In this document: piece after piece, positions 8,630 through 29,811 of the stretch | How the letters are laid out: every line of letters starts with the position of its first letter | Position numbering within the stretch: the first letter of the stretch is position 1 | From: Clostridiales bacterium | Lineage (GTDB): Bacteria; Bacillota; Clostridia; Christensenellales; Aristaeellaceae | Assembly: GCA_015056245.1 (NCBI GenBank) | Contig: SVGQ01000003.1 | Span: 2,689-66,688 of the forward strand | Direction of reading: 5' to 3' | DNA length: 64,000 bases | The notes under the pieces: generated by a model | Database searches by the model: none | The model's input: only the letters and a program-made list of their open reading frames with translations | Told to the model about the DNA's origin: nothing | Program-made: the position numbers and the translations under genes

Positions 8630-8667
8630 TCCACCTATCCGGAGTACCGATGTTCAGACTATCTGAC

Positions 8668-8813
8668 CCCTCACTTTGTGAGGGCGCAATTATACGCACG
8701 GTGCCCGTGCATTGCGCTCCCTGAGAGGCATTACATGCAGCTCGCTGGCAGAGGGGATTTCCCCCTTTGCCAGCACCAGGGAGGCAAGCCCTCCCTGCGC
8801 CGATTCCATCGGC
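8668..8813 (+). other. Cluster of five consecutive GC-rich stem-loops (candidate structured RNA or recombination site)
   Basis: Hairpins: 8668-8684 (CCCTCAC/GTGAGGG); 8684-8717 (GCGCAAT/ATTGCGC with inner CACGG/CCGTG); 8745-8773 (CTGGCAGAGGGG/CCCCTTTGCCAG); 8777-8797 (CAGGGAGG/CCTCCCTG); 8799-8813 (GCCGAT/ATCGGC). Confidence 0.4.
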
Positions 8814-8950
8814 TACCCATCAGACAGTGCTGATGTGATGAATAAAAGGAGATGATATCATAGTATTCATCTCATACTCAGCATTCTTTGAATGTGTAGC
8901 CGTATGATTCATCATGCTCAAATGGGGATTGGGGATTTTTCCCCAACAAG

Positions 8951-8992
8951 AAAAACCGACAGAGAAGCAGCTGGCTCTCTCTGTCGGTTTTT
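8951..8992. terminator. Bidirectional terminator-like hairpin
   Basis: A perfect 15-bp stem, AAAAACCGACAGAGA (8951-8965) with TCTCTGTCGGTTTTT (8978-8992). Confidence 0.5.
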
Positions 8993-9205
8993 CTCATGTG
9001 TGGCCACACATGCATTGCTTGCTGCTATAAATTGTTTCTCGCTTTTTGATCTATCGAACTACGTGAAAAAAATGGATGGGCTTGTTGTGTATGTGGCAGA
9101 CTATATCATGGAACATGAGATTACTGTATACATAACATCGGAAAAAACATCTAGGGCTTAATATGAAATATCAAAAAACTCCTTATCCCCCCTATCAAAC
9201 AGCAC

Positions 9206-9247
9206 CGCCATCCGCTAGTTTATTCACATCGCGGATGGCGTTTTTTT
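9206..9247 (+). terminator. Rho-independent terminator (upstream transcript unknown)
   Basis: CGCCATCCGC (9206-9215) pairs with GCGGATGGCG (9231-9240) and is followed by TTTTTTT. Confidence 0.55.
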
Positions 9248-9381
9248 CTCGTTTCAATCAAACAATCTGCAATTGAAATGGTTATGATAATCAAAAAACA
9301 GAATGCTTCCTGCTGAAAACATGAAATACAAACGAGTGATACAACCGTCAGCTCCAGACAGATCGGGCTTGATTGACAAGC

Positions 9382-9945
9382 TCAAATGTTTACGGAAGCC
9401 ATTCGGTACAAATCCACTTCCGAAAACATAAGGACAGCAACATCATTATCTTGAAGCTGATTAACAATTTTGACAATAATATTATGATTTCTGAACTCAT
9501 CCATTTCGGTATTTTCGTCAAATTGAGTGTAATACAGTCCGAATGTTATGTAGTTGTTTGGCGCACAATTTGACGAAAGGAAGCGAGGCTCCACATTTTC
9601 AGTTGCATGACCATCATATCCATACTCTGTATAGCCTTTTGGTCTTGAATGAATGTTCTGGATGATTTTTTGGTATATCTTAATCGACTGATCCTTGTTC
9701 CGATTTTGCTCGGCATCCGTCTCGTTAGTAAAATATATCGAGATGTATTCTCTATCGGACAAGGATAGTTGAGTATAATCAATGTGATTCATCAATCGAA
9801 AGTATTTGGAGATTGTCGAACAATACACTTGCGTTTTCAGAAGTGGTTTGATCCTTTTGCTATGTAACACTTCTTCAAATCCTTCTAACTTATAATGCGA
9901 GTACAGGTATTGAAGCAGGGACATTTCAAAATATGGGTTATTCAT
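9382..9945 (-). CDS. Hypothetical protein (187 aa), no recognisable motif
   Basis: An AT-rich ORF with ordinary composition lying 104 nt downstream of the XRE gene on the same strand. The overlapping ORFs 9373..9573 and 9546..9782 are shorter and low-complexity. Confidence 0.65.
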   Translation of the reverse strand: MNNPYFEMSLLQYLYSHYKLEGFEEVLHSKRIKPLLKTQVYCSTISKYFRLMNHIDYTQLSLSDREYISIYFTNETDAEQNRNKDQSIKIYQKIIQNIHSRPKGYTEYGYDGHATENVEPRFLSSNCAPNNYITFGLYYTQFDENTEMDEFRNHNIIVKIVNQLQDNDVAVLMFSEVDLYRMASVNI

Positions 9946-10049
9946 CGCTCAGCTCTCCATGCTTTTATTGTAATCCGTTTTTTGACAATCCAGTATGGAT
10001 GATCTGATGTAATTATTACATGAACCTCGCTTAAAACCAATAGGAACAT

Positions 10050-10352
10050 TTATTTCATTGAGCTAACAAGTTCCATCAGCATTTCCTTTTGTTTGGGTTC
10101 CAAGGCAGCCCAATGGATAAAGAACTGCTGCTGTTCGGGCGTCAACTCAACCATATTCCCCTCAGCAAAGAATTGGGATAGCGTTATTCCGAAGCCATTG
10201 CAAAGAGCGCGCAAGGAAGGAATCGTAGGTTCTGTATTTCGACGCCACATATTCGATATGGTGGTTTGGGCAAGTCCGGAACGCTTGGCAAGCTCATAAA
10301 CCGTCCAACCACGTTCATCCATCAGTTCTTTGATACGCTTCTTTGTATCCAT
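10050..10352 (-). CDS. XRE-family helix-turn-helix regulator (100 aa)
   Basis: GGAGG lies upstream of ATG 10352. The HTH_3 pattern is ERGWTVYELAKRSGLAQTTISNMWRRNTEPTIPSLRALCNGFGITLSQFF. Confidence 0.85.
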   Translation of the reverse strand: MDTKKRIKELMDERGWTVYELAKRSGLAQTTISNMWRRNTEPTIPSLRALCNGFGITLSQFFAEGNMVELTPEQQQFFIHWAALEPKQKEMLMELVSSMK

Positions 10353-10424
10353 TCCAATGCCTCCACACGTTTCGATAGTCATATTTTACGGAACATTTGA
10401 GTAGCACAAAAGAAGTCATAAGGG

Positions 10425-10454
10425 TTGTAATATACATACCATATGGTATATAAT
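10425..10454 (+). promoter_or_regulatory. Candidate promoter with an overlapping 14-nt palindrome in the XRE/resolvase divergent region
   Basis: TTGTAA (10425-10430), an 18-nt spacer and TATAAT (10449-10454). The perfect palindrome ATACCATATGGTAT (10436-10449) overlaps the spacer and -10, and is a plausible XRE operator. Confidence 0.4.
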
Positions 10455-10582
10455 GGGTGAATCATATGAACGGTAACAAAAGGGGACGATTCGATGAAGT
10501 AACATTTGTTGGTGTATCATATGACGATCTGGGCGCTTTCTGTAGAATATAGCGGAAATGATTATTCACAGGAGGCAAAGCG

Positions 10583-11089
10583 ATGACACACACAATGTAT
10601 GGATATGTTCGTGTATCCAGCAAGGAGCAGAATGAAACAAGGCAATTACTTGCAATGGACGAGTTTGGGGTCGATAGGAAAAATGTCTTTCTTGAAAAAC
10701 AGTCAGGTAAGGATTTCAACAGACCAGTCTATAAAGCCCTTTTACATTGCCTGAAAACAAACGATGTGTTGGTTGTGAAAAGCATTGATCGTCTTGGCAG
10801 AAACTATGACGAGATTCTTGAGCAATGGAGATTTATCACCAATATTGTTTTGCAGTTGTTATCATATGTTGCTCAAACAGAAAGAGAGTTAATTAGGCAA
10901 AGACAAGCTGAAGGGATTGCCGCAGCAAAAGCCCGTGGAGTTCACTTTGGTCCAAAGCCAATGACCCCACCTTCGCAATTTCAACAGTATCACATTCTGT
11001 GGCAAGACGGTAAAGTTTCAGCAAGGGAAGCTGCCCGACAACTTCATGTTTCGCATAAGACATTTCTGAAGTGGGTAAAAACAAAATAG
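10583..11089 (+). CDS. Small serine recombinase (resolvase/invertase family), apparently with an internal in-frame deletion (168 aa)
   Basis: GGAGG lies 7 nt upstream of ATG 10583. The catalytic N-terminus is YGYVRVSSKEQ, with SIDRLGRN, the E-helix VAQTERELIRQRQAEGIAAAKARG and a C-terminal HTH. The segment between DRLGR and AQTER is only 23 aa, versus 43 aa in my recalled Tn3 resolvase sequence. Confidence 0.8.
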   Translation: MTHTMYGYVRVSSKEQNETRQLLAMDEFGVDRKNVFLEKQSGKDFNRPVYKALLHCLKTNDVLVVKSIDRLGRNYDEILEQWRFITNIVLQLLSYVAQTERELIRQRQAEGIAAAKARGVHFGPKPMTPPSQFQQYHILWQDGKVSAREAARQLHVSHKTFLKWVKTK

Positions 11090-11322
11090 TGCTGCCTAGT
11101 CTTCTAAACACAGAAACTATTTTGGGAAAAATTGTGGACAATCGCCAACGTCGTGTGGTATTATTAAATTGATGCAAAATATGACAATATTGGACGTTTT
11201 CAGATGCTTTTTTCCGAAATGAAAAGCGGTGGTGGTTTCCTACAATCGGCACCATTTTCATTTGGGACGCTTAGCATCTGTAATACCAGACATTGTTATT
11301 GATGTTTGAAAGGGGTATTCCT

Positions 11323-12045
11323 ATGAGATCATCGGTGCTTGCTTATCGGCTTTTGTCGCTTCTCTTAGTTATGCTGCTGTTGCCAATGAGTGCATTCGCG
11401 TATGTGTACGATGAGAATGTCAGTTACTATGAATCGTTGCCTGCGGTAGAACAATATATGAAAACAATGAAATCACCGACACAAACAATCATTGAGAGCG
11501 ATAATGTGAAAGGTGAAGATCATCGAATCAGTATCTATAAGGGGTGTCACGAAAGACTGCAGGCACTTGGATATTGTTTGTCAGACTATAACAGAAACCG
11601 GTACTATTCTGACGATTATGTAACAGCAGTCTCCATATTTGCTCAACAGATGGGACTTGGTGATTGTTTTGATGGGCAAAAAACGACACCATTCCTTCGG
11701 GCAGTGATTATGGCAGACGGGGTTGCTCAACCCGTCATTGTTGCTCCGATCAACCATCGTCTCTACTATACCAAGAATGAGAAAGTATATTCCTTGAAAG
11801 AACTTGTTCAAGCCAAACCGGCTGAGATGGTCTGCTGGAAAGGAACAGTAGCAGATGTGAAACTGCTTTCTGGAACGAAGGTGCGATATACAGTAAGCTG
11901 TGAGGATGAAACCTTCGTCGTAGAATTTGTTCATCCGACCAGAAGTTCTACTTTCCTGAAAGATGATAATGTCATTGTTTATGGCAGAGTCGTTGCTAAT
12001 GAGGATGTACAGATTTTGGCAGATATGATTGCCTATTCGAAATAA
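11323..12045 (+). CDS. Secreted protein with a possible peptidoglycan-binding-like segment (240 aa)
   Basis: The signal peptide is MRSSVLAYRLLSLLLVMLLLPMSAFA. HERLQALGYCLSDY...AVSIFAQQMGLG resembles a PG_binding_1-type repeat. The C-terminus is beta-rich. It is the first gene of the co-directional cassette. Confidence 0.7.
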   Translation: MRSSVLAYRLLSLLLVMLLLPMSAFAYVYDENVSYYESLPAVEQYMKTMKSPTQTIIESDNVKGEDHRISIYKGCHERLQALGYCLSDYNRNRYYSDDYVTAVSIFAQQMGLGDCFDGQKTTPFLRAVIMADGVAQPVIVAPINHRLYYTKNEKVYSLKELVQAKPAEMVCWKGTVADVKLLSGTKVRYTVSCEDETFVVEFVHPTRSSTFLKDDNVIVYGRVVANEDVQILADMIAYSK

Positions 12046-12081
12046 ACAAGATCAACTAATATATACCGAAAAGAGGGACTG

Positions 12082-13749
12082 ATGATGAAAAAAAGAGCAT
12101 GGTTCAGCGTAATGCTGGTTTGCTTAATCATGTTGATGTGCTCTTGTACGGCTGTACCACCAGATCAGAATCCGAGTGGTAACATCGGAGGCTTGGAAAC
12201 ACCACCCCCTACTGACATTCTTACGGATGAAGCGGAAGAAAACTCTGATTCATCTGCGTTGGTTGATAGCGTCACTCCGGCTCCTTTGGTGCCATTCACA
12301 GGCATTCATCAGGTACAGGTGTTTGTTGACGCAACGATGCCGATGATGGGTTTTGTTGATATGGAGGAGCGTTCCGATTATATCACGCTTATGGAATCCT
12401 GTCGTACTGCAGCTGCACAATGTTTTCCAAATGGGCGAGAATATGCTTATCGCATCGACATTGACCAACCAATAGAAAACGCGGGTCTTGTCAATGGACT
12501 CTCGTTGCAGGAAGCATCTTCTCCCAGCTTCTATCTCTCCTCGGATTTGACACATTATCCAGCAAAGGTATATTCCGCTCCTTCTGACTCGCACCGTTCT
12601 TCTGAACGTTTTAATGAATTCCATTTGAGTTATTACCATGCGTATGGTAAAGCGGAACCGGCAACTGACATTCAAACGCAGAATCCTGTCGCGTGGGCAA
12701 TCAATCAGATGGATCCATCTCTCGATAATATCGCCATTATTTTCAGCGATTTGTCGGAACTTCAGTTTGATTCCTCCAAACTTACCACAGCGATTCAGAC
12801 GCAAGTATTTGGACAGGGAAAGACAATCGGTATTTTGGCTATGCAAAGCAACTTTGCAGGTTTGGTACCCATGAGCAATGGCTGGTTTGTCTGGGGGTCT
12901 GAACCAACGGGTACACTTTGGAAGATGCTCGATTATACGCATTATGAGCTTGGCATCTCCATTGATCCTGAGCTTCGCCAAACAGCGCAGCGCCCGCTTT
13001 ATGTTATCTGTGTGGGCGAATCAGATGCAGTTAATCGCTTTGTAAATACACTGAACAGCCAGATGAATATCCGCTTTACCGATGAAGCAACTCAATTGAA
13101 TTTGCGGGCTTTCGATGTGGATTTCGGCACCAAGAACGTGAATATCGCAGACTCCGTCTCGTTGGCATCCAACACCCAAGAGGGCATGAATTTGGTGGAT
13201 GAGGGAGACCGATTGACAACTGTTACGCTTCAGCGTATGCGTGGTGAATACGATGAAAACGCAAATCCTCGCTACGCTATCTATGAAGTGACTTATCCAG
13301 CTAAACTCACAGATCCCCGCACGAGTTTTGGTTTTAGCCCCAGCGATTTCAACGTACAGGCTGCGATGGTCAAGTATGATAAAGGCAACATTGTTACGCC
13401 TATGGGTACTCCCACAGAAGACCAGTTGAAATGCACTGTAGTCGGTACGGAGCTGATGGGAACGGATGTAAAAGTGAGTATTCGTGTCGATTTCCCGTTC
13501 CAGAAGTTTGATCGTGGTAATTATGATGTAACGATTTCCATGATGCTGAATCCCCCCGGAGATGTTGGCGAACCATTGTGGGTATCGGATTATCATACGG
13601 ATTTCAACAGCCCCGATAGCTTTGACGGCAGTAAAACAGTAGGACTCAATGCTCTTTTCAGTCATATATCTGCTTGCCAGAAGGCTGTCATTTCTAAACA
13701 ATTCACAGCCCTGGGCGAATTCACGTTTAAGCTGAGAGTAAACGACTAA
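12082..13749 (+). CDS. Probable lipoprotein/secreted protein (555 aa); possible degenerate vWA-like core
   Basis: N-terminus MMKKRAWFSVMLVCLIMLMCSCTAVPP, a signal peptide with Cys. The strands VQVFVDATMPMMGF and NIAIIFSDLSEL recall the vWA beta1/beta4 pattern but lack a canonical DxSxS. That call is weak. Confidence 0.7.
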   Translation: MMKKRAWFSVMLVCLIMLMCSCTAVPPDQNPSGNIGGLETPPPTDILTDEAEENSDSSALVDSVTPAPLVPFTGIHQVQVFVDATMPMMGFVDMEERSDYITLMESCRTAAAQCFPNGREYAYRIDIDQPIENAGLVNGLSLQEASSPSFYLSSDLTHYPAKVYSAPSDSHRSSERFNEFHLSYYHAYGKAEPATDIQTQNPVAWAINQMDPSLDNIAIIFSDLSELQFDSSKLTTAIQTQVFGQGKTIGILAMQSNFAGLVPMSNGWFVWGSEPTGTLWKMLDYTHYELGISIDPELRQTAQRPLYVICVGESDAVNRFVNTLNSQMNIRFTDEATQLNLRAFDVDFGTKNVNIADSVSLASNTQEGMNLVDEGDRLTTVTLQRMRGEYDENANPRYAIYEVTYPAKLTDPRTSFGFSPSDFNVQAAMVKYDKGNIVTPMGTPTEDQLKCTVVGTELMGTDVKVSIRVDFPFQKFDRGNYDVTISMMLNPPGDVGEPLWVSDYHTDFNSPDSFDGSKTVGLNALFSHISACQKAVISKQFTALGEFTFKLRVND

Positions 13750-13765
13750 TGCAGGAGGAAACAAC

Positions 13766-14323
13766 ATGAATAAGGCATCTGTTATTCGTTGGGTATGGAT
13801 TGCTGCAATCTACGCAATTCTTGGAGGTATCATTTTTGCTGTAATGGGACTGTGGTTTGAGGCTATCTACATCACGCCTCCCGGTTACAGCACTGATGCT
13901 TGGCAGACCAATTTGAATATTACGTTCATGAATACATTGCTGTGCTCCTTGGGGTTGCTGCTTCTCTGGAACATCCTCTACAGCATGCCCCTTTTGGGCG
14001 GCCGCTATAAAGGTGCAAGTGTTTATGTGCTTCTGATTCTCTGGCTCCTGCTGCATATTGTTGCCAGCCTTGGTATGCTTCTGCTGACGGTACTCCCGAT
14101 TCTTGTTGCCAATCGTGCTCCCTTCTGGCTGTTCTTCCGTCTGTTGAAAGAGTGGGCCATCGCATATGGCGGCGACTTCCTGTTCCTGCATCTGTTGCCC
14201 TCTTTGTTAATCATTCCTTATTTCCTCAGCCTGACGTTGTTTAGCCCGGAAATCATCGCACCAAAATTTGCTATGTTTAATAAGTTGCGTCAGCACATTG
14301 GTTTGAAATACAGCAAGAATTGA
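13766..14323 (+). CDS. Polytopic integral membrane protein (185 aa)
   Basis: AGGAGG lies upstream of ATG 13766. There are about five hydrophobic helices and no recognised family. Confidence 0.75.
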   Translation: MNKASVIRWVWIAAIYAILGGIIFAVMGLWFEAIYITPPGYSTDAWQTNLNITFMNTLLCSLGLLLLWNILYSMPLLGGRYKGASVYVLLILWLLLHIVASLGMLLLTVLPILVANRAPFWLFFRLLKEWAIAYGGDFLFLHLLPSLLIIPYFLSLTLFSPEIIAPKFAMFNKLRQHIGLKYSKN

Positions 14324-14347
14324 TTGAATTTGTAGGGGGTTAACAAC

Positions 14348-15910
14348 ATGGCACATTTGTTTGCTTTTTTCTGTGGTGGCAGTGGCGCACGCGTTGCGGA
14401 AACATATGCCTTCTGCGCAGCAATGGGTTTGATGAGACATGATATTCCCACCCACATTTGTCTTTGTGATGCAGATCATCAGAATGGTAATGAGGCTACC
14501 GCCTTTGGCACAATTAAGAATTATGCAACTGTGCGTAATGAGATGTATCGAGATGGTCATACTCCTGCAGGAGCGGGGGATTTCTTTGGCACACCTCTCA
14601 CTGTTGGCCAATGGGCTTTGGATGGTCGTAAGGGCACATATGCTGGTCAGGCACAGTATACGCTGGATCAGTTGGGCAGCGCTGGCGATGCCGGCGTTGT
14701 AGCCAGTGCGCTTTTTACTGAAAAAGAAAGAACTCGGGACATCAAAAACTTGGGTTTCTTTGCCCACCCCAATGTGGGTAATGCCATTGTTCAGGCAGCC
14801 ATTTTATATGAGCAGGATGTGGCATCGAATCAAAACATCACCACAGAATATAAAAGAACAAAGCAATTAATTATTCAGCAACTGAATGCTGGTGACAGAG
14901 TTTACGTAGTGTTTGTTGGTTCTTTATTCGGCGGAACAGGAGCCGCTTGTATGCCGACAATTGCACAGGATTTGCGTACATCCATTCAGGACTATTGCGC
15001 ACAAAAGGGTATGCTGCAATTTGATCAAATTTTCCATATGAGTGCAGTTATGTTGCTCCCTTATTTTACTATTCCGCCCAAAGAAGATGGTGAAGAATTG
15101 GTTGATGGTGGTGTGTTTGATTCCAGCACAAAGATTGCGATGGATCACTATTTCCGCAAACACCCAAATCTTTTTGAGACGATCTACCCTATCGGCCTTC
15201 CAACGAGCTACGTCCAGCCTGGTAAAGCTGAGTATGGTGGTGAAAAGCAAAAGAATCCGTCCTCGCTGGTTGAATGGGTAGCGGCTATGGCTATCCGCGA
15301 CTTTATTATGACGCATGATGTGAGTGCTGCCATGCCCGTCCACAGTGAGCTTTGCTGTGCTTCCTTGGATGTGGATGGTGAAAACAACTATGTGCTTCGC
15401 AACAGTAGTTTTATGAGCCCTTCATTTGGTGATGCTTTCAATCGTTGGAATGAATTTGCAGCATTCTATGCGCTTTACCTGTATCCAAATATTAAGCTGG
15501 GTAATGCAAGAAAAAAGGCACCCACCAATTGGTATCGTAACTATATTATCATGGCAGCAGACAATCCAGCGATTGATCAGATGTTTACATTTGTCAAAAC
15601 ATACTATACCAGCATTGAAAATCTCCTTGGTTTAAGATTGAACGACGGTGCACAGCCCGTAAATGAGTTTGTGAATTCCGATTGTCTGGTAAAAATCAGC
15701 AGCATTCTGGAGCATCTTGGGACTGTTGAGCGTATGAGTGATCGTGATGTTCGAAATGCCTATAACGCATTAAAGCATGGGTTTGATATTCCAATAGATC
15801 GAGTGCAGCGAAATACCGTGCCTCGTGATCTGGAAAAGGCGGCTACTACGGAAAACCAAACGGCAGGTGGTCTTGGTCAGCTGCTTCAGTTCGTTGCCAA
15901 AGCGCTTTGA
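14348..15910 (+). CDS. Tubulin/FtsZ-like GTPase-fold protein (520 aa), divergent
   Basis: FFCGGSGARV (aa 7-16) is T1-like, LGFFAHPNVGNA (aa 135-146) is T3-like, and VYVVFVGSLFGGTGAAC (aa 185-201) matches the tubulin signature pattern GGGTGxG. There is no P-loop and no signal peptide. Confidence 0.75.
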   Translation: MAHLFAFFCGGSGARVAETYAFCAAMGLMRHDIPTHICLCDADHQNGNEATAFGTIKNYATVRNEMYRDGHTPAGAGDFFGTPLTVGQWALDGRKGTYAGQAQYTLDQLGSAGDAGVVASALFTEKERTRDIKNLGFFAHPNVGNAIVQAAILYEQDVASNQNITTEYKRTKQLIIQQLNAGDRVYVVFVGSLFGGTGAACMPTIAQDLRTSIQDYCAQKGMLQFDQIFHMSAVMLLPYFTIPPKEDGEELVDGGVFDSSTKIAMDHYFRKHPNLFETIYPIGLPTSYVQPGKAEYGGEKQKNPSSLVEWVAAMAIRDFIMTHDVSAAMPVHSELCCASLDVDGENNYVLRNSSFMSPSFGDAFNRWNEFAAFYALYLYPNIKLGNARKKAPTNWYRNYIIMAADNPAIDQMFTFVKTYYTSIENLLGLRLNDGAQPVNEFVNSDCLVKISSILEHLGTVERMSDRDVRNAYNALKHGFDIPIDRVQRNTVPRDLEKAATTENQTAGGLGQLLQFVAKAL

Positions 15911-15934
15911 CCTATGAACAAGGAGTGAAATCAG

Positions 15935-18900
15935 ATGGCTAAGAAAAAAGATACACAGTCTCAGTATATAACAAAATCTATGCTTCCCGAGACGAATGGT
16001 TTTATCACCTGGCCTGCAAACGTCACGAACAATACGTTCAATCATTTGGGAAATACCCATACGTTGGATACCTTGCGCAAAACTCTGCCCGGCAAGATCA
16101 CCAACGAAGCAATTATTCCCAATATGTTGATGCCTGCATATCGCTTGGAAAGCCGCATGCGCTGTAACGATCAGGCAGAAGCCCAGAGCGCTCTGCAGGA
16201 TGAACGTGTCAAAGAATGGTTGCGTGTGCTTTGCGCTGTGCTTTTCAATGATGATGATCACATGCAATGCCATGAGTTGAATCTGAAAAATGTGTTGCAT
16301 GATTCGGCTTATCCAATGATTATTCGTGTGCTTGCAAAGACGCTGATTGAAACTGGCAACAGTAATCCCACATTCAAACTTTTCAAGCAGCGTACGGGTC
16401 CCGGCCCCGATGACTTTAAGCCTGTTGCCTTTACCTATTCAGGGCTGAGAATCGGTGTGTGTCCAGTGGTGGAACTGAATCCAGACGACTTCAGCGGCGT
16501 TCAGAACGATCCGCAGGGCTGGTTAAGCTGCGACGATCCGATTGAATACTTGAAAAGACCTCAAAACGCTGCTTGTCGTGCAAGAATTGATGACTATCTG
16601 ACATATACGAATATTGGTAATGGCACACACTCCTATGAGGTATTCGAGGAAGAATACCGTATCATCTGTGATGAAATCCGTAGTCAGCTTGCGCCAGCAG
16701 ATGGTACAAAGGCAGCTTTCTTTCCGCTGCGTATCAAAGACTCTGTCAAAGGGAAGCCTCCAATCAGCTATATTCATTGGTTCACAGATTCTATTCTTTG
16801 CGTAAGCTGTGATCAAACCGGTGAAGGCGTTTTGTCCGTGCCGGACAAAGACTTCAAATGTGTACTGCCTATCAAGAGTCTTTGTATAGGCGAAGGTGGC
16901 AATATCAATGAGGTTTGTAATTCCGCATCGGTCAATGTAATGGGCGACGACCTCATTGTCAGCTTTACATATAATAATTCGTTCAATCAGCGTCGCTACA
17001 CTCCGGACAAGCAGATTTCTTGCATTGGCGATGAAAACCCGCTGGGCAGCGTTATGCTGTGGCCAAATAAGACCTGTTCGGAATGGGACCGCTATTTCTC
17101 TTATTTGAGCAACAACTGTCTTGGACGTCCTGAAATGGACTTGGATCCGTTTTCGATGGAAGTCTATGACGGAACGATCTGGCATACTCAAACGACAGGT
17201 TTCCGCAGAATGCAGCGAGAAGAAAACAACATTACACAAAACTTCGTTTTTGACTATGTCATTGAGACGAATGTTTTTCCTTCTGCTATCAGCTTGAAGA
17301 GGAGGAATGAAGAACTTGGTATGTTGGTACCCACTGTGTCTGCATTACCTCCCGTTCCCGATGGCGCAAAAGGCCAATTGGGCGTGGACTTTGGTACAAC
17401 AAACACGATTGCTTATTTCCACTCTGATAAAGTTGATCCCGAAGTTGTTGCAATAAGTGACAGCCGTAAAGTGCTTCTGCAAGATCGCTCGAAAGTCAGC
17501 GATAGCAACACGTTGCTCTCCTTCTTGTTTGCCCCTGATACGCATACTGGAAGCAATATCCCATTTAAAACCGCCGTACAGGTTTTCCCCGCTCCGCAAG
17601 CTAAGGCTTTCTTGAATGCTATTGCGCCGTTGCAGTATCGTGTGGACTTAAACGAGAATATGCGGGAGCTCTTGAGTCTGGATGACGATCTAAAGTGGCC
17701 GGATGACATGGCTGCTGCAACTAATCCGACCAATTCCGTTGCATTTTTGGAGTATGTAATGCTTCTTTGGCTGTGGGAAGTCAGAAAGAAGTATAATGTG
17801 TTGCCTAATCGGTATGTATATACTTATCCGGGCGCTATGGATGTTGGGTTTATTCAGAATCTGACAAACAGCGTACTGCAGCGCATGCCTGCGCGTTATG
17901 CTGCTGGCGGTTATTCGGTAGATTATGCTACTGAGGCTTCTGTTGTCATCAATTTCCTTGAAGATAATAGCGTGCTGGGGAAATACGCCAGTAAAGGATT
18001 GTCTTGGGTTGATAGCGAAGTTGGCTACCTGCTTATGGACATTGGTGGCGGTTCTGTCGATGTTTCCCTTTGGCAGGGATCAAAGCATAATGTAGCCCTG
18101 TGTACAGAACTATCACTTAGCGCTTTTGCTGGTAACCGAATTCAATTGGAACAGGTATACCCCGCCGGTGCCAATAGGCCACAATTGAATCTGCTGGCAG
18201 AAATAATGGGTTATTCCAAGGATCAACTTGAAAACAGCAAGAACATCAGTGACGCTGTTGCATTCTATCAATTTGCCAAGGGCGATGCCGTTCATTTGAA
18301 TGCTTTCCGCCAGCAGTGGACGGCTCACATTGATACCGTACGGCAGGGAATGGAAAATCGGGCTTACGATAGTAAGGCACCTATGCGCGGCAAGTATCGT
18401 AAGACGCTGGAGATGTACTTCCACTTTATGTTCTTCTTGAATGGGTATGTATATGGACAGGCCCTGCAAGATGGACGTTTGAAGTTGGTACCTGGTACAT
18501 TTGCCATCATGATGGGTGGTAATGGCTCCAGAATGTATGATCTGTGCGGCAGTAATTCAGCGGATTCCGAGCTGTTTGACAAGGCCAACATCCAAATGTT
18601 TGCACATGGTATGAGATATGCGGGTTATGAAGGAACACTTGCAGGAGTAGAGGTGGCTGTTGTTCCCTCTATTATGCACAAGCATGAGGTAGCTTATGGT
18701 GCCTCGAAATTTGTGCAGCCGCCGGTAAAGGCACTCCCGGTTGGGAAAGCATTTTCGCTTACTTCATTCAGCGATGAACCAGTTGCAACAAGCGCAACTC
18801 CTGCTTGGCTGAATGTCGAAGAAGCGGCAATAATCCGGCCGAAGGCAAAAGAGTTTTTCCTTCATTACCTGGACGGATTGAACAAAGTGAGAGAAAACGG

Positions 18901-19057
18901 CAGAAATTTCATGATGACGAACTTTGGTTATCAGCTTGATGAGAATTTCTTCAACAAGGCACAAGCTGTCATCCATGAAGGCTCTCTTCCTCAAGCTGCG
19001 GCTGCGATCTTCCGCACACTGCTGACCACGATTGGAAGCAGACATTTCCAAGATTGA
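15935..19057 (+). CDS. Large Hsp70/actin-fold ATPase-domain protein (1,040 aa) with a novel ~470-aa N-terminal region
   Basis: AAGGAG lies upstream of ATG 15935. VDFGTTNT (aa 484-491) is the phosphate-1 motif, LLMDIGGGSVDVS (aa 699-711) is phosphate-2, and IMMGGNGSR (aa 858-866) is the adenosine motif. They occur in the canonical order and spacing. Confidence 0.8.
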   Translation: MAKKKDTQSQYITKSMLPETNGFITWPANVTNNTFNHLGNTHTLDTLRKTLPGKITNEAIIPNMLMPAYRLESRMRCNDQAEAQSALQDERVKEWLRVLCAVLFNDDDHMQCHELNLKNVLHDSAYPMIIRVLAKTLIETGNSNPTFKLFKQRTGPGPDDFKPVAFTYSGLRIGVCPVVELNPDDFSGVQNDPQGWLSCDDPIEYLKRPQNAACRARIDDYLTYTNIGNGTHSYEVFEEEYRIICDEIRSQLAPADGTKAAFFPLRIKDSVKGKPPISYIHWFTDSILCVSCDQTGEGVLSVPDKDFKCVLPIKSLCIGEGGNINEVCNSASVNVMGDDLIVSFTYNNSFNQRRYTPDKQISCIGDENPLGSVMLWPNKTCSEWDRYFSYLSNNCLGRPEMDLDPFSMEVYDGTIWHTQTTGFRRMQREENNITQNFVFDYVIETNVFPSAISLKRRNEELGMLVPTVSALPPVPDGAKGQLGVDFGTTNTIAYFHSDKVDPEVVAISDSRKVLLQDRSKVSDSNTLLSFLFAPDTHTGSNIPFKTAVQVFPAPQAKAFLNAIAPLQYRVDLNENMRELLSLDDDLKWPDDMAAATNPTNSVAFLEYVMLLWLWEVRKKYNVLPNRYVYTYPGAMDVGFIQNLTNSVLQRMPARYAAGGYSVDYATEASVVINFLEDNSVLGKYASKGLSWVDSEVGYLLMDIGGGSVDVSLWQGSKHNVALCTELSLSAFAGNRIQLEQVYPAGANRPQLNLLAEIMGYSKDQLENSKNISDAVAFYQFAKGDAVHLNAFRQQWTAHIDTVRQGMENRAYDSKAPMRGKYRKTLEMYFHFMFFLNGYVYGQALQDGRLKLVPGTFAIMMGGNGSRMYDLCGSNSADSELFDKANIQMFAHGMRYAGYEGTLAGVEVAVVPSIMHKHEVAYGASKFVQPPVKALPVGKAFSLTSFSDEPVATSATPAWLNVEEAAIIRPKAKEFFLHYLDGLNKVRENGRNFMMTNFGYQLDENFFNKAQAVIHEGSLPQAAAAIFRTLLTTIGSRHFQD

Positions 19058-19126
19058 CGATAAGCCCTTACCATTCACAATGCAGACCCGGTTATTTCCG
19101 GGTCTGCACATATTGGAGGTGAAACC

Positions 19127-20068
19127 GTGGTGGATTTGCATTATGATGTGCCAATGGTTCTTCTGCCCGAGCAGATGATCGCAAATGGAGAAGTTTGGGA
19201 TGCCTTTCAGGAAGTCCAGATCAAGCTTGCACAACAGGGTTCATTGATTGAAACAGAGTTTTTAGATCAACAAAACGCTATTCAGACAGCCCATACGCAA
19301 GTGATGCAGGGTCTGGAGCTGCAAAATCAGCAGCTGGAGAAACAACACCTGTTCAATAAGGTCAATGTTGGCCTGTTGGGTGCTGTTTTGCTGTTTGCCA
19401 TCATTCAGGTTATCATAACTGCCATTCAGAACAGCAAGATCCGCAAGATGCGGGAAACAATCGACCGACTGGATGAAGTGAATCGTTGGTATGCCAGTTG
19501 TCAGGAACAGCAGGAGAAAGCACAGAATGCGATTTGGAATAAGCTCTGTGCTGTTGGCGACCAGACTGTCTCTACATCAAGAGCAATACATGAAGTAAAA
19601 TTGATGCTGCAAGAGCGGCCCAACCCCATTTCAGAAAAAACCGATGACCCGCCACCGACTATTCCCCAGCCTCCCAAGCCTCCGCTTCATACAGCGTTAT
19701 CTCAAATGCTGATACAGGTTGCAGCAAGTCAAAGCGAAGGCTGGGGAGCGAAGGTTGAAGCATATTTGGCAAATGAATATCACCTGAATATCGGTTACTA
19801 TCGTCGGCGTGATCCATCAGGTAACCTGTATCGGGGAGTTGTTGAATTGGTTGACGATGATAAAGCACCATTCTTTGGTGTGGCTACCGATGGTCGTTTA
19901 CTATTATTGCCAAACAAAGCCTACTTGAATGCATTGGCTATTTGTGCTGGAGAATTCTTCAATGGTTATGAAACCGCTAGTGGTGGCATTTCCAGTATGA
20001 ATTGTGCAGTATTAAACAAAGATGGGGACTTTTGGCGACTTGTCAGTCCTGGCAGTATCAATCAATAA
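19127..20068 (+). CDS. Bitopic coiled-coil membrane protein with a Pro-rich linker and a C-terminal globular domain (313 aa)
   Basis: GTG start at 19127 with GGAGG about 8 nt upstream. Gln/Glu-rich heptad-like segments flank one TM helix (VNVGLLGAVLLFAIIQVIITAI). A DDPPPTIPQPPKPP linker is followed by a ~120-aa domain of unknown family. Confidence 0.7.
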   Translation: MVDLHYDVPMVLLPEQMIANGEVWDAFQEVQIKLAQQGSLIETEFLDQQNAIQTAHTQVMQGLELQNQQLEKQHLFNKVNVGLLGAVLLFAIIQVIITAIQNSKIRKMRETIDRLDEVNRWYASCQEQQEKAQNAIWNKLCAVGDQTVSTSRAIHEVKLMLQERPNPISEKTDDPPPTIPQPPKPPLHTALSQMLIQVAASQSEGWGAKVEAYLANEYHLNIGYYRRRDPSGNLYRGVVELVDDDKAPFFGVATDGRLLLLPNKAYLNALAICAGEFFNGYETASGGISSMNCAVLNKDGDFWRLVSPGSINQ

Positions 20069-20129
20069 TACGATGGCTGGTTTGGTATGTTGTTAACTGC
20101 CATACCAGCCATTTTGTTAAGGAGTTATT

Positions 20130-21611
20130 ATGAAACGAGCAATACTGAAGTTGCTGATAGCCCTGCTACTGATTTCCTTGCTGACTTCTTGCACAATGGC
20201 TCAGCCAACAGGTATAGTGGATGACAACCTTTTAGGATTAAGGAATCAAACGCAAGAACCATATACTGGTATGTTCTCCAATCCATACGCTCCGGTTACA
20301 TCAACTCCACTTCCACAGGGGAGTCTGATGTTTGTTGATGTGGATGAAGCAAATGCGCTCAGAGCGGAACGTGAAGAAAGAAAGCATGACCCATTCCTGT
20401 TCGTTGAGATGCCTGAGCCTATTGTCATTGACAAACCGACAGATACACCTCCGCCGGTCTATGAAACGACACCCCCACCAGAAAAACCATCTACACCTAC
20501 GCCTGTGCCCAATAAAACAGAACCGTCAACGTACATTTTTGAACTTTGTGGTTCTGTCGGAACACGTTATGCCTATCAGCAATTAACGCAAAAACAAAAG
20601 GAATTATTCTCTGAGCTCTACGATGGGATTGTTGAGAATCAGGCATCCATCCAGATAAAGGGAACTTATCCTTATTCGGATTATATTCGTGTTTACCGAG
20701 CGATTAACTTCGATTGTCCAGAGCTATTCAATATCAAATGGCCCATGAAATGCTATGTATCTGCAAATTCAGTTGACGAATTTGTTTCTCGTGTTGAACC
20801 CCAATATTACATGAGCAATTCTGAGTACAAACAGCGTCTGGAAATAGTAATAGGAAAGATTAAGGGAATGTCTTCTGCGGCCAGTTTTGGTTCTACAGAT
20901 GTGGATCATGAGATCTATATACAGCGCTATCTGATTGAGAATGTTACATATGTACTTCAGGAAGACGCCCGAAGAGCAGATCGAGCGTATTTGGATGGCT
21001 ATGCCAAATGTGATGGATACTCTAATGCGACGATGTTAGCGCTTCGTTATTATGGAATCCCTTGCCTGAATATTACTGGTTGGACATATGAACAAGATGG
21101 AAAACGAGCTGATAATGCACATCAATGGAACATGGTTCAGCTCGGCGGTAATTGGTATCATCTCGATACAACTTGGAATGATCGTAATGGCAACTTCCCA
21201 TTTGTTCTTCAAACCTCTCAGAGCAAGCATGTGTATTTCTTGCCATATATGAATACTTCTGATGCACGGATGCTTCATAGAAGAACGGTTGATATGGAAA
21301 GCAATACATGGGATTTGCCAAAGGCCAACACAGAAACGTTATCATACTATAGGATGAATGGTTTGTCTGTTAGAAACACCGAGGACGCACGCAATAATTT
21401 GTCTTCACAGATTTCCAATATAGCTCAAAACGGTGGGGAATATGCGATTGCATATTTTGATAAACCCTCCGATGTCGATGCTTTTGTTTCTTCCGTTCAG
21501 TCCTTCATCAATGGTTGGAAAGGATGGAATAATGAAAGAATCAACAGATACTATTATAACTATTGGTCTGATATAGGTGTGATATATCTGTTTGATATGT
21601 CTTTCCGTTGA
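20130..21611 (+). CDS. Lipoprotein with a transglutaminase-like (Cys-His-Asp) core domain (493 aa)
   Basis: Lipobox LLTSC (Cys21) and a Pro/Thr-rich linker. The core YAKCDGYSNATMLALRYYGIPC...NAHQWNMVQLGGNWYHLDTTWND fits the transglutaminase-core triad (Cys294, His331, Asp346). Confidence 0.8.
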   Translation: MKRAILKLLIALLLISLLTSCTMAQPTGIVDDNLLGLRNQTQEPYTGMFSNPYAPVTSTPLPQGSLMFVDVDEANALRAEREERKHDPFLFVEMPEPIVIDKPTDTPPPVYETTPPPEKPSTPTPVPNKTEPSTYIFELCGSVGTRYAYQQLTQKQKELFSELYDGIVENQASIQIKGTYPYSDYIRVYRAINFDCPELFNIKWPMKCYVSANSVDEFVSRVEPQYYMSNSEYKQRLEIVIGKIKGMSSAASFGSTDVDHEIYIQRYLIENVTYVLQEDARRADRAYLDGYAKCDGYSNATMLALRYYGIPCLNITGWTYEQDGKRADNAHQWNMVQLGGNWYHLDTTWNDRNGNFPFVLQTSQSKHVYFLPYMNTSDARMLHRRTVDMESNTWDLPKANTETLSYYRMNGLSVRNTEDARNNLSSQISNIAQNGGEYAIAYFDKPSDVDAFVSSVQSFINGWKGWNNERINRYYYNYWSDIGVIYLFDMSFR

Positions 21612-21712
21612 GTATGTGGCATAGGCAAACAATGACGATTTTTGTTTGCCTATTCATAGCCATAAAAGACTCGATTGTAATTTGTGTATGGCCATTACTA
21701 GGAGGATATTTG

Positions 21713-22177
21713 ATGAAAAAGTTTCTGACGATAATCCTGATAAGTATTCTTCTCTTCTGCTTGACATCCTGTACTCCGGTTAAGCCAGGTTATGATCTGC
21801 GCCATGAACCAGCTGGTCTTGTTGGAAAATGGAAATGCAACGATATGAATCAATTGGCAGGTGTAATGTTTGATTTCGCCGATGGCTTGTCAGGACTAGA
21901 TGTGTTTGGTACTTTGGGCGATGCAGTAGATATTTCTGTAGAGTTGACATTTTTTCAAAATGGGACATACCAATTAGATATGGCAGTAATGATGCTGATT
22001 GTTGGTACAGAAACCGAAACGATGACAGGTACTTACTCTTGGCAGAATAATCAGCTTATTCTCGATGGAGAGATAGTGGACGCAACGCTGAATGGCAATA
22101 AGCTGACTCTTACCTCACACACGCCAGATAGGTATGTCGTACGACTTGAATTTGAGCGTGAGGACAGGTATATATAA
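21713..22177 (+). CDS. Small lipoprotein, lipocalin-like (154 aa)
   Basis: AGGAGG lies upstream of ATG 21713. The signal is MKKFLTIILISILLFCLTSC (lipobox LTSC). The fold is beta-rich, ending ...LILDGEIVDATLNGNKLTLTSHTPDRYVVRLEFERED. Confidence 0.75.
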   Translation: MKKFLTIILISILLFCLTSCTPVKPGYDLRHEPAGLVGKWKCNDMNQLAGVMFDFADGLSGLDVFGTLGDAVDISVELTFFQNGTYQLDMAVMMLIVGTETETMTGTYSWQNNQLILDGEIVDATLNGNKLTLTSHTPDRYVVRLEFEREDRYI

Positions 22178-22287
22178 TCGGCTTTTTTGATGGGAAGGTA
22201 GTGAATGCAGCGCTGAATGGCAATAAGTTGACTCTTACCTCCCATACGTTAGAGGGTATGTCGTATGACTTAAGTTTGACCGAGTGG
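22064..22287 (+). repeat. Direct ~100-nt duplication spanning a gene junction
   Basis: 22064-22163 and 22189-22287 align at about 80% identity in frame (DGEIVDATLNGNKLTLTSHTPDRYVVRLEF versus DGKVVNAALNGNKLTLTSHTLEGMSYDLSL). Confidence 0.8.
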
Positions 22288-23139
22288 AATATTGGGGAGG
22301 ATGCATTCGTGAAAAATAAGAATAGAATCAATCATCCTAATCAGCATCAATTATGGGATATACAATCAGGTGTGCTCTATAATTGTTATGCCTCAGCAAG
22401 TCAGTTGATATTACCCGTCGAGATTCATACCATCGCCCGAAAAGCGTTTGAAAATGCTGATGCAGAATACATCTGTGTTCCAAGGCATGTGGCGCTTAGA
22501 CCTGGTGCTTTTGAAAGTAGCAAGTTCAAAGAAATCACATTGCCAGAAGGAATCACACGAATAGAGGATCAAACCTTTTTGGGCTGTGAAAACCTATACA
22601 AAGTGAATGGCATAGACTCCTTAACCTATATAGGTCGTTTTGCATTTGCAGGCTGCAAAAAAATCACACAGTGGAAAACAAATCAAGTAATGGATATGAT
22701 AGATGAAAACGCCTTTGCTGAGAGTGGTTTGATCAATCTGCAATTAAAATGCAGATTGATCGGGAGAAAAGCATTTGCAAATTGTGTATCTTTGGAGGAA
22801 GCTGTGCTTGAAGATACAATTGTGATTGATGATGCTGCTTTTGTGAAGTGTACATCATTGAATAAACTTCAGCTTAAAGAGCCGTTGTTAAGAATTGGTG
22901 ATCACGCCTTCAGAGAATGCAAGAACTTGATCAGTGTTGTACTGCCACAGAGTTTACAGGAGTGCGGATATAAAAGCTTCGCTGATATTCAGAATTTTCA
23001 TGTAAAAGCTCCTGAATATTTGAGGATTCTCTTAGAAGATGAACATATGGTTGGTAGACCAGAAAATGATTTCAAAGATCAATATTATGAAGGTTTCCAC
23101 AGGGTTTTTGATCATTCCGCCAATATTCAGTATACATAA
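22201..23139 (+). CDS. BspA-type leucine-rich-repeat (LRR_5-like) protein; start uncertain (GTG 22201 or ATG 22258)
   Basis: Repeats are of the type IARKAFENA...ITLPEGITRIEDQTFLGCENL...LTYIGRFAFAGCKKI. There is no signal peptide. The first ~25 codons duplicate the 3' end of the preceding gene. Confidence 0.7.
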   Translation: MNAALNGNKLTLTSHTLEGMSYDLSLTEWNIGEDAFVKNKNRINHPNQHQLWDIQSGVLYNCYASASQLILPVEIHTIARKAFENADAEYICVPRHVALRPGAFESSKFKEITLPEGITRIEDQTFLGCENLYKVNGIDSLTYIGRFAFAGCKKITQWKTNQVMDMIDENAFAESGLINLQLKCRLIGRKAFANCVSLEEAVLEDTIVIDDAAFVKCTSLNKLQLKEPLLRIGDHAFRECKNLISVVLPQSLQECGYKSFADIQNFHVKAPEYLRILLEDEHMVGRPENDFKDQYYEGFHRVFDHSANIQYT

Positions 23140-23154
23140 TAAGGAGTATGAACG

Positions 23155-24231
23155 ATGAGTGAAACATATCAAATAAAGGATAATACTCTTGTTGGTTATC
23201 CTGATCATGAAAATGTCATCGTGATTCCTGATGGTATACATGCTATTGAATCCTATCTTTTCGACGATTCCTGTATCTCATATCTTGCTATGCCAGAATC
23301 AGTGAAAACGTTGGGAGTACAAACATTTTGTTGGTGCGATCGTTTGTGCATTATCGATTTTTCAAAACATATCAAGCGTCTGGAACGTGATGTATTCAAT
23401 TCGATTGCTGCGTATAGACTTAATCCTACCGAAAGCCTGGTCTATATTGGAAATGCAGCATTTCAAGGCAGTTTGTCACTCCTGTTTTTTCAATTTCCTG
23501 ATAATGTCATATTCATAGCTGATAGAGCATTCCATCATTGTGTTTCTATGCGTTATGTTACATTTGGTAATCAACTGAAATACATTGGAGAAAATGCATT
23601 TTCCAGCACTGCACTAGAGTATCTTTATCTTCCTGAAAGTCTAATTAGCATAGGGCGATATGCATTTGCGGATTGTGAAAATCTTTGTTGGGTTACACTA
23701 AAAGAAGGATTGCTGAGTATAGACGAAGCTGCTTTTCGTGGCTGTGTTTCCTTGAAATGTATAGAGATCCCCGATAGTGTGGTATCAATTTCGAAAAGAG
23801 CTTTTACTGATTGTGATTCGCTTGAAATTGTAGAGCTTCCTGAAAAGTTTAAGAATGTGAGCATGAAAGATGTTTTTCCCTTTCATACCAAAATCGTCTT
23901 TCGAAATAAAACAGGTGAAAGTAGAGTGCAAAAAGGGCGGCATACAAATGACATCAAATTGATCGAAAGCCAATTGCATGAAAACGAAAACGAGATGGTG
24001 TTTGGAACTGCCGAGTCATCTTATGCAATGGGATGCTATTATCTTTTTGTAAAACAAGATGAAAAAAAGGCAAAAGCACATATGGAGCAGGCGGCTGCAC
24101 AAGGATTTGCGAAAGCACATTATCAATTGTATTTTCTTGATAAATCTCAAAACAAAAGAGTTCATTTACTACGTGCGGCTACATTGGGATGCGAAAAAGC
24201 AGTGTATGAACTAATCAAGTTGCTTGGTTAG
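23155..24231 (+). CDS. BspA-type LRR protein with C-terminal Sel1/TPR-like repeats (358 aa)
   Basis: AAGGAG lies upstream of ATG 23155. LRR_5-like repeats are present (IGNAAFQGSLSL..., IGENAFSSTALEYLYLPESLISIGRYAFADCENL...). The tail AMGCYYLFVKQDEKKAKAHMEQAAAQGFAKAHYQLYFL is Sel1-like. Confidence 0.8.
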   Translation: MSETYQIKDNTLVGYPDHENVIVIPDGIHAIESYLFDDSCISYLAMPESVKTLGVQTFCWCDRLCIIDFSKHIKRLERDVFNSIAAYRLNPTESLVYIGNAAFQGSLSLLFFQFPDNVIFIADRAFHHCVSMRYVTFGNQLKYIGENAFSSTALEYLYLPESLISIGRYAFADCENLCWVTLKEGLLSIDEAAFRGCVSLKCIEIPDSVVSISKRAFTDCDSLEIVELPEKFKNVSMKDVFPFHTKIVFRNKTGESRVQKGRHTNDIKLIESQLHENENEMVFGTAESSYAMGCYYLFVKQDEKKAKAHMEQAAAQGFAKAHYQLYFLDKSQNKRVHLLRAATLGCEKAVYELIKLLG

Positions 24232-24299
24232 TAGTAGTTATTGAATAAGCAGCTCGTTCTTCCGATGCAGAAAGATTCGATTATCAGACACATAAAAAT

Positions 24300-24332
24300 C
24301 CCTTTAACCTGATGGGTTTAGAGGGCTTTTTA
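24300..24332 (+). terminator. Rho-independent terminator at the end of the 10-gene cassette
   Basis: CCCTTTAA (24300-24307) pairs with TTAGAGGG (24318-24325), including one G-U pair, and is followed by CTTTTTA. Confidence 0.6.

Positions 24333-29735: not shown

Positions 29736-29811
<76 letters not shown>

Follow-up and report, generated by a model that had tools for sequence, protein, structure and literature searches.

What is the function of a protein of 1,040 residues that embeds the signature motifs of Hsp70 and actin between long flanks and is encoded directly downstream of a tubulin-like gene? This question is raised by a gene in the 64,000 nucleotides of a Clostridiales bacterium genome that we analysed as a whole (assembly GCA_015056245.1, contig SVGQ01000003.1, positions 2,689 to 66,688 of the forward strand; hereafter the window). 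The original prediction, made from the sequence letters, had proposed an Hsp70/actin-fold ATPase core between uncharacterised domains and, together with the tubulin-like gene, a machine of two nucleoside triphosphatases (NTPases). The explanation that we favour on balance is that the protein is the ATPase subunit of a conserved, mobile and membrane-associated gene cassette. Its gene has the following features, given in coordinates of the window.

15920-15925, plus strand: AAGGAG, read from the sequence as the Shine-Dalgarno element of the ATPase gene, 9 nt 5′ of its ATG
15935-19057, plus strand: gene of the predicted giant Hsp70-like (ASKHA) ATPase, an open reading frame from ATG to stop encoding 1,040 residues
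16115-16774, plus strand: family-specific N-terminal alpha/beta domain (residues ~61-280), with confident secondary structure in the model and hidden Markov model (HMM) matches in distant relatives
16775-17344, plus strand: beta-rich domain (residues ~281-470), with strands in 287-464, a predicted local distance difference test score (pLDDT) mostly >90 and invariant P312, W376-P377 and G462
17357-18724, plus strand: two-lobed ASKHA nucleotide-binding domain (residues ~475-930), assigned from the DSSP order, PDB profile matches, HHalign and Foldseek
17384-17407, plus strand: phosphate-1 motif VDFGTTNT (residues 484-491) in the beta1-beta2 hairpin, with invariant D485 and G487, aligned to GIDLGTANT of MreB
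17693-17698, plus strand: K587-W588 (DLKW) in an insertion resembling Hsp70 subdomain IB; K587 invariant, W588 at least 90% conserved
17816-17947, plus strand: connect-1 region (residues 629-669) with the YTYPG strand and invariant E667 (ATEAS), aligned by HHalign to VTVPASF...EEPQAA of Hsp70
18035-18064, plus strand: phosphate-2 motif MDIGGGSVDV (residues 701-710), with invariant D702, G704 and D709
18509-18532, plus strand: adenosine motif MMGGNGSR (residues 859-866), with invariant G862, closing the strand 854-861
18680-18700, plus strand: connect-2 motif K916-H-E918-V-A-Y-G922; K916 and G922 invariant, E918 and A920 at least 90% conserved
18797-19054, plus strand: C-terminal helical region (residues ~955-1040), with helices in 964-1037 and pLDDT ~90; the close family keeps a tail from L1018 to G1034

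The open reading frame and the three motifs named by the original prediction (phosphate 1, phosphate 2 and adenosine) were all found at the predicted coordinates, and a gap of 24 nt separates the ATG from the end of the tubulin-like gene at 15910. The two phosphate motifs are 217 residues apart, compared to ~186 in DnaK, and the adenosine motif follows phosphate 2 at a distance of ~158-160 residues. In an alignment of 72 sequences with a mean column identity of 16%, residues D485, G487, K587, E667, D702, G704, D709, G862, K916 and G922 were invariant. Since these residues are kept among relatives that are otherwise so dissimilar, the motifs did not arise by chance. Furthermore, 114 of 135 long database relatives retain both phosphate motifs in the same order, with a median spacing of 215 residues. 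The counterpart of the connect-2 motif in Hsp70 reads DEAVAxGAA. All five motifs of the ASKHA superfamily are thus present in order: DFGTTNT, YTYPG...TEAS, DIGGGSVD, GGNGS (residues 861-865) and KHEVAYG.

When a profile of the family was compared with the PDB, MreB (E 3.3e-9, with both phosphate motifs aligned), FtsA (2.7e-7) and an actin-family protein (5e-4) were matched best, and exopolyphosphatase and Hsp70 more weakly. HHalign against Hsp70 from the database gave a probability of 96.6% (E 6e-10) over 75 columns of the nucleotide-binding domain, covering connect 1 and phosphate 2. In this alignment YTYPG was paired with VTVPASF, TEAS with EEPQAA and DIGGGSVDVS with DIGGGTTDFS. Among 46 relatives, sub-threshold Pfam matches were obtained to MreB_Mbl (29), FtsA (14), Ppx-GppA (11), EutA (6), Alp7A_like_C (4), HSP70 (1) and SrfB (1).

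The structure prediction by AlphaFold2 depended strongly on its input: an alignment of six sequences resulted in a pLDDT of 41.6, whereas the alignment of 72 sequences resulted in a pLDDT of 84.2 and a predicted template modelling score of 0.78. In the latter model, DSSP assigned the order beta-beta-beta-alpha-beta-alpha-beta-alpha, that of an ASKHA lobe, to residues 479-686 and again to residues 698-924, so that the duplicated lobe order of the superfamily is predicted as well. Insertions are present at the positions of the Hsp70 subdomains IB and IIB, and the three motifs are predicted to form an actin-fold cleft. In a Foldseek search of the PDB with the model, the top 50 matches were all nucleotide-binding domains of Hsp70 (E ~1e-8, probability 1.00, ~500 aligned columns), with target-normalised TM-scores up to 0.58; viral Hsp70 homologues led the search of BFVD. 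The PDB profile, HHalign, the AlphaFold2 model and Foldseek therefore all bear out the core that had been proposed. We are highly confident that it is an Hsp70/actin-fold (ASKHA) nucleotide-binding domain with ATPase activity, fold and activity taken jointly. Because the acidic and basic residues of the cleft (D485, K587, E667, D702 and D709) and the GGNGS loop are invariant, the core very probably binds and hydrolyses ATP.

The boundaries of the core differ from those given earlier. It had been placed at residues 470-880, with ~170 residues following. As the connect-2 motif (916-922) comes after the adenosine motif, the core extends from ~475 to ~930, and the C-terminal extension is ~110 residues long. 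In the model, residues 1-60 have low confidence and are probably disordered, and residues 932-953 form a low-confidence linker between the core and the C-terminal helices. The description of the flanking domains as uncharacterised was correct: no relative of them was found in Pfam, NCBIfam, PHROGs, PADLOC or the PDB sequences, and they are conserved in relatives of ~1,000-1,200 residues from many phyla. The first 470 residues had also been called Cys-rich. This is true of the count, as 15 of the 17 cysteines are located there, and seven cysteines are invariant in the close family. In the 72-sequence alignment of the wider family, on the other hand, none is conserved, and the Cys content therefore gives no pointer to a conserved metal site.

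Single-sequence searches with the ATPase in Pfam, PHROGs, PADLOC and the PDB chain sequences gave no match, and the only hit in NCBIfam was MPN313, far below its threshold (E 0.0084, 16.5 bits; cut-off 100). A word-indexed search of 5.8 billion proteins returned six close homologues alone (46-100% identity); repeated with the deep alignment, it added few matches and no named protein. The alignment of the six homologues was then used for an exhaustive HMM search of 1.84 billion cluster representatives, which yielded 362 relatives at E<=1e-3, 78 of them at <=1e-10. Most of these are 950-1,250 residues long and are matched over about position 345-920 of the profile; in several distant relatives the N-terminal domain was matched as well (e.g. 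P0008, 7e-14; P0011, 9e-16). No relative has a name other than 'hypothetical protein'. This includes the RefSeq entry of a cyanobacterial plasmid copy (WP_013325770.1), which adjoins a 'tubulin-like domain-containing protein'. A genome scan found further relatives in Poribacteria, Terriglobus, Longimicrobium and Selenomonadales. The relative from a Selenomonadales metagenome-assembled genome (locus L016) has 1,236 residues and is encoded at 1294-5004 of a locus that begins at a contig end, with little upstream sequence. A tblastn search with the ATPase of the window against phage and plasmid collections gave no match. The protein is best described as a member of a new family that has no name in Pfam or NCBIfam.

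The genes that accompany the ATPase gene in a conserved order are the following.

12082-13749, plus strand: lipoprotein of 555 residues, with an invariant lipobox Cys after the signal peptide
13766-14323, plus strand: polytopic membrane protein of 185 residues with ~4 transmembrane (TM) segments by hydropathy, its position kept in all cassettes examined
14348-15910, plus strand: tubulin/FtsZ-superfamily GTPase (Tubulin_2/FtsZl1 type) of 520 residues, with invariant GGSG and GSLFGGTGA signatures
19127-20068, plus strand: single-pass membrane protein of 313 residues, with a TM segment at 82-100

The assignment of the tubulin-like protein was examined across its orthologues. Tubulin_2 (PF13809) was matched by all nine of them (best E 4.7e-8, above the gathering score) and PF00091 by five of the nine; the Novosphingobium copy scored 33.1 bits against the PF13809 gathering score of 27. 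The profile of the tubulin-like family matched FtsZ and CetZ in the PDB at the signature motif, without reaching significance, and its matches to tetratricopeptide repeats were spurious. The tubulin assignment therefore stands on Pfam. In 23 of 24 fetched loci, an open reading frame with the tubulin signature GS.FGGTGA lies directly upstream of the ATPase gene on the same strand, so that the tubulin-like neighbour noted in the window is a conserved partner. We are confident that the ATPase is a subunit of a conserved tubulin-linked cassette. The idea of a two-NTPase machine holds for the pairing, but the conserved unit is larger, a membrane-associated cassette of five genes. In most cassettes, the C-terminus of the tubulin-like protein is a short conserved tail (G..G.LL....A; GGLGQLLQFVAKAL in the window, nt ~15860-15907). 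This GxxGxLL tail is a candidate docking peptide, as it resembles the C-terminal peptide by which FtsZ binds FtsA or ZipA; an amphipathic membrane anchor would be just as plausible.

The core order, with all genes in one direction, is lipoprotein, membrane protein with 3-5 TM segments, Tubulin_2 GTPase of ~500-520 residues, ATPase of ~1,000-1,200 residues and a further membrane protein, mostly with one TM segment. It recurs in loci L001-L008, L013 and L018-L028. These comprise close relatives (L001-L004), distant metagenome contigs (L005-L008, L018-L022, L025, L026 and L028) and distant named carriers, namely Novosphingobium sp. 18050 (L013) and plasmids of Gloeothece PCC 7822 and Synechococcus NIES-970. 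Pairwise comparison showed that the components are homologous between cassettes, and the membrane topology is conserved. The protein downstream of the ATPase has 1-2 predicted TM segments in 10 of 11 cassettes and none in L024; weak homology was detected for it between L001 and L005 and between L001 and L019. Several distant orthologues of the lipoprotein harbour a MIDAS-like DxSxSM motif (e.g. VDRSGSM in Novosphingobium) and a later motif resembling SDL or TDG. In the lipoprotein of the window the motif is degenerate (DATMPM, with the second Ser lost). No von Willebrand factor A (vWA) domain was matched in this family by Pfam or PDB profile, and the motif suggests a diverged vWA domain of unproven identity.

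In the window, these five genes are part of an operon of ten co-directional genes (11293-24231) with gaps of at most 70 nt, which ends at a terminator-like hairpin (24210-24232). Its other genes are accessories.

11293-12045, plus strand: exported protein of 250 residues, with a signal or TM segment at 20-38 and a homologue in L005 at another position (7e-18)
20130-21611, plus strand: transglutaminase-like (papain-fold) lipoprotein of 493 residues, a lineage-specific accessory (Transglut_core, 7e-12; lipobox LLTSC)
21608-22177, plus strand: small lipoprotein reading frame of 189 residues, starting at a TTG that overlaps the preceding gene
22201-23139, plus strand: BspA-type leucine-rich repeat (LRR) protein of 312 residues (LRR_5)
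23155-24231, plus strand: BspA-type LRR protein of 358 residues (LRR_5)

Candidate catalytic Cys, His and Asp residues of the transglutaminase-like protein were chosen by eye from the sequence. The true start of the small lipoprotein is probably an internal Met at residue 36 (nt 21713), which would give a textbook lipoprotein signal (MKKFLTIILISILLFCLTSC). The two LRR proteins matched LRR_5 with E-values of 3e-39 and 9e-68, and the gene order at this end of the operon is the same as in L004. Exported peptidases recur beside the core cassette: the transglutaminase-like protein in the window, Trypsin_2 in L021 and L025, and Peptidase_C39_2 with fn3 in L028. No Pfam match to fn3 was found in the cassette of the window. 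In L018 a pair of MotA/ExbB and OmpA genes is found instead of a peptidase, an arrangement that recalls the ZorAB motor of Zorya.

The left edge of the island that carries the operon is marked by the following feature.

7652-11089, strand unspecified: mobile-element remnant, identified by Pfam

This remnant consists of a truncated large serine recombinase, an open reading frame of 187 residues, a Cro/C1 helix-turn-helix gene and a resolvase of 168 residues. The recombinase is reduced to its C-terminal half (Recombinase, Zn_ribbon and DUF4368) and lacks the resolvase domain, whereas L004 carries an intact version of the gene set in the same arrangement. The GC content drops to 0.39-0.47 over ~8-24 kb, compared to 0.53-0.61 on the left and ~0.50-0.54 on the right. 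The low-GC island extends over ~8000-24300. Other copies of the cassette adjoin genes for an MqsA-like antitoxin, a resolvase, ArdC or an SNase-family nuclease, or are located on plasmids. The flanking recombinase and helix-turn-helix genes, the GC trough and the cyanobacterial plasmids indicate that the cassette is horizontally mobile.

How might the two NTPases work together? The arrangement resembles that of FtsA and FtsZ, as a gene for an actin-fold ATPase lies beside one for a tubulin-fold GTPase, together with membrane proteins, and MreB and FtsA are the best sequence-profile matches of the ATPase family. In contrast to FtsA and MreB, the ATPase is three times larger, and the cassette, which is patchily distributed and carried by mobile DNA, does not qualify as a core division system. 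The protein itself is neither MreB (PF06723) nor FtsA (PF14450): it matched neither family, and its relatives matched them below the threshold and around phosphate 2 only, the best score of a relative being 26.3 bits against a cut-off of 27.

We tentatively propose that the ATPase and the tubulin-like protein are coupled by analogy with FtsA and FtsZ. Both would be cytoplasmic and pair at the membrane, as FtsA does with FtsZ. ATP-dependent closure of the Hsp70-like cleft would shift the family-specific N- and C-terminal domains, and these would tether, nucleate or remodel a polymer of the tubulin-like protein. The two membrane proteins could then relay the state of the polymer to the lipoprotein outside the cytoplasm and to secreted enzymes that differ between lineages; the secreted outputs in the window would be the transglutaminase-like lipoprotein and the BspA-type LRR proteins. 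Equally tentative is the more general proposal that an obligate pair of tubulin GTPase and ASKHA ATPase on mobile DNA drives a module of extracytoplasmic lipoprotein and peptidase through two membrane proteins. The output of such a machine might be, for example, a regulated remodelling of the envelope, the release of vesicles or a conflict-type response of the abortive kind.

Tubulin_2 proteins and their operons have been described before. FtsZl1/Tubulin_2 was defined by Makarova and Koonin 2010 (PMC2875224), together with its operons, in which vWA proteins, P-loop GTPases, kinases and OmpA-like proteins occur; the associated families that they named (A1-A2 and B1-B9) include no actin-fold protein or giant ASKHA partner. 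In the part of the supplement that we consulted, most FtsZl1 proteins have ~900-1,190 residues and are paired with COG2304 vWA proteins, P-loop GTPases and kinases, and one FtsZl1 neighbourhood contains a DnaK-like neighbour (M. magneticum amb2961, 1,626 residues, COG0443). Like these operons, our cassette combines a Tubulin_2 gene with membrane-associated and exported proteins, has an OmpA-domain gene in one case (L018) and a vWA-like DxSxS motif in some of the lipoprotein orthologues. Unlike them, it encodes a tubulin-like protein of ~500 residues, has no vWA domain by Pfam or PDB profile and has no P-loop GTPase.

Two biological roles are the leading candidates: a conflict or defence device, and the remodelling of the envelope or of vesicles, which has been proposed for FtsZl1 operons. 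The first would make the cassette an anti-phage or inter-genomic conflict system in which associated peptidase effectors are controlled by the two NTPases, as NTP-dependent components of a threshold or an assembly. Such a system is a proposal on biological role and does not conflict with the biochemistry outlined above. It fits the location in mobile islands and on plasmids near recombinases, the MqsA-like antitoxin, ArdC and the SNase-family nuclease, as well as the patchy spread across phyla at low sequence identity and the variable accessories (transglutaminase-like protein, Trypsin_2 in two lineages, Peptidase_C39_2 and the MotA/ExbB-OmpA pair). Moreover, Kaur, Burroughs, Iyer and Aravind 2020 (PMC7159879) describe conflict systems of the DO-GTPase/GAP1 type into which tubulin or HSP70 modules are recruited. 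Proteins of the tubulin and HSP70 superfamilies are combined there with TM components and peptidases, in proposed NTP-dependent assemblies. The cassette is likewise a multi-gene unit with all of these elements. However, those systems are defined by one or two TRAFAC-clade DO-GTPases and GAP1, and tubulin and HSP70 (with GrpE) appear in that paper as separate neighbourhood themes and not as an obligate adjacent pair. The Walker A motif [AG]xxxxGK[ST] was absent from all eight cassette proteins tested, and the defining DO-GTPase is therefore absent from the cassette. Nor did any cassette protein match PADLOC-DB. In addition, no intracellular toxin is among the accessories in the window, which are LRR surface proteins and extracytoplasmic lipoproteins, and effectors of the usual kinds (nuclease, NADase or pore-former, for example) are missing from the core cassette. 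We thus regard a conflict system as possible but doubtful.

The remaining alternatives concern the ATPase itself. It could form a cytomotive actin-like filament of the ParM, Alp7A or MreB kind and serve, jointly with the tubulin-like protein, to segregate or position the mobile element on which it is encoded. The Pfam families nearest to the 46 relatives (MreB_Mbl in 29, FtsA in 14 and Alp7A_like_C in 4), the higher PDB profile scores of MreB and FtsA compared to Hsp70 and the presence of some cassettes on plasmids are consistent with this. The best structural matches, however, are nucleotide-binding domains of Hsp70 and not filament formers, and the protein has three times the size of ParM or MreB. 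Among the conserved members of the cassette there is no ParR- or TubR-like adaptor for DNA binding; a lipoprotein and membrane proteins are conserved as partners instead, and many copies are chromosomal. All this makes a segregating filament improbable.

Alternatively, the protein could be a genuine Hsp70-type chaperone for unfolded clients, with the beta-rich domain as a permuted substrate-binding domain. Like Hsp70 and DnaK, which are its best structural match, the core is predicted to have the two-lobed actin-fold nucleotide-binding domain with all five motifs, and a similar acidic and basic constellation in the active site appears to be conserved in the family. Hsp70 likewise combines a beta-rich with a helical domain, albeit in another order. 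Unlike Hsp70, the protein has no C-terminal substrate-binding domain; ~470 unrelated residues precede the nucleotide-binding domain and ~110 follow it. The beta-rich domain is N-terminal to the nucleotide-binding domain and its fold was not matched to the substrate-binding domain of Hsp70. PF00012 gave no match to the ATPase at E<=0.1 and matched one of 46 relatives (E 0.006), and the cassettes examined showed neither DnaJ nor GrpE as a partner. We therefore rejected a canonical Hsp70 identity on these three grounds (substrate-binding domain, PF00012, DnaJ/GrpE) and consider a role as a client chaperone hardly probable.

The original prediction had also noted a likeness to SrfB, a protein of ~1,000 residues, and a SrfB-family virulence factor (PF07520) of the SrfABC tripartite toxin is indeed similar in size, poorly understood and encoded in a small operon, but this identity is very improbable and was rejected, as PF07520 matched neither the ATPase (E<=0.1) nor ten other relatives (nine and the Novosphingobium orthologue, tested at stricter cut-offs), its only hit among 46 relatives was non-significant (E 0.093), and the neighbours, a lipoprotein, TM proteins and a tubulin-like protein, match no Srf family in Pfam and include no SrfA-like or SrfC-like partner. 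SrfABC as described comprises SrfA with a kinase-like domain and a TM helix, and SrfC as a third component, and has no tubulin-like component.

Several points weigh against the ATPase subunit of a tubulin-linked cassette as we have described it. Members of the family are known from their genes and from predicted structure alone. K587 is a candidate equivalent of the catalytic Lys of Hsp70 (K70/K71), and a coupling role for the N-terminal 470 residues is speculative. The tubulin-like protein of the window itself reached just E 0.059 against Tubulin_2, and synteny is what points to a physical interaction between it and the ATPase. One locus, L016, has no open reading frame with the tubulin signature in the sequence fetched, and may represent a variant architecture or a rearranged cassette. 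In PADLOC-DB v2, nine cassette and neighbouring proteins had zero matches at E<=0.1, and neither the IMG/VR scan nor the phage records contained relatives of the ATPase, so that a defence role has no direct support.

Outside the island, the window contains an open reading frame of 323 residues (6558-7529, plus strand) just beyond its left edge, with a P-loop-like GLPCSGKST and no Pfam match. On the right, a tRNA-Thr gene (anticodon GGT; 29736-29811, minus strand) lies between the island region and two giant open reading frames of 8,257 residues (30155-54928, plus strand) and 2,704 residues (55414-63528, plus strand). These consist of dozens of Cna_B repeats with FctA/SpaA isopeptide domains and a pAdhesive_15 domain, and are therefore read as Gram-positive surface adhesins or pilin-like fibres, which points to a Gram-positive host. 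Equally long antisense frames (e.g. 34487-54970, minus strand) are probably artefacts of composition or repeats.

Cytoskeletons rest on two pillars, the actin-fold and the tubulin-fold NTPases, whose textbook bacterial pairing is FtsA with FtsZ. The cassette would represent a second, independent actin-fold/tubulin-fold pairing that is conserved across distant bacteria, from Firmicutes-like gut and metagenome contigs to Alphaproteobacteria, Poribacteria, Acidobacteria, Gemmatimonadota and cyanobacterial plasmids. FtsZl1-centred operons were known; what is new here is a giant Hsp70-like ATPase family paired with a short Tubulin_2 GTPase in a mobile cassette of five genes. We found no paper that describes such a cassette, in a literature search that was incomplete, and an earlier description is possible. 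The ATPase would supply the missing enzymatic partner for a subgroup of FtsZl1/Tubulin_2 proteins, which have been functionally enigmatic since 2010, and the five-gene unit offers a compact, testable system for prokaryotic tubulin homologues. If a function in defence or in vesicle formation is true, the cassette would constitute a new mechanistic class made from cytoskeletal folds.

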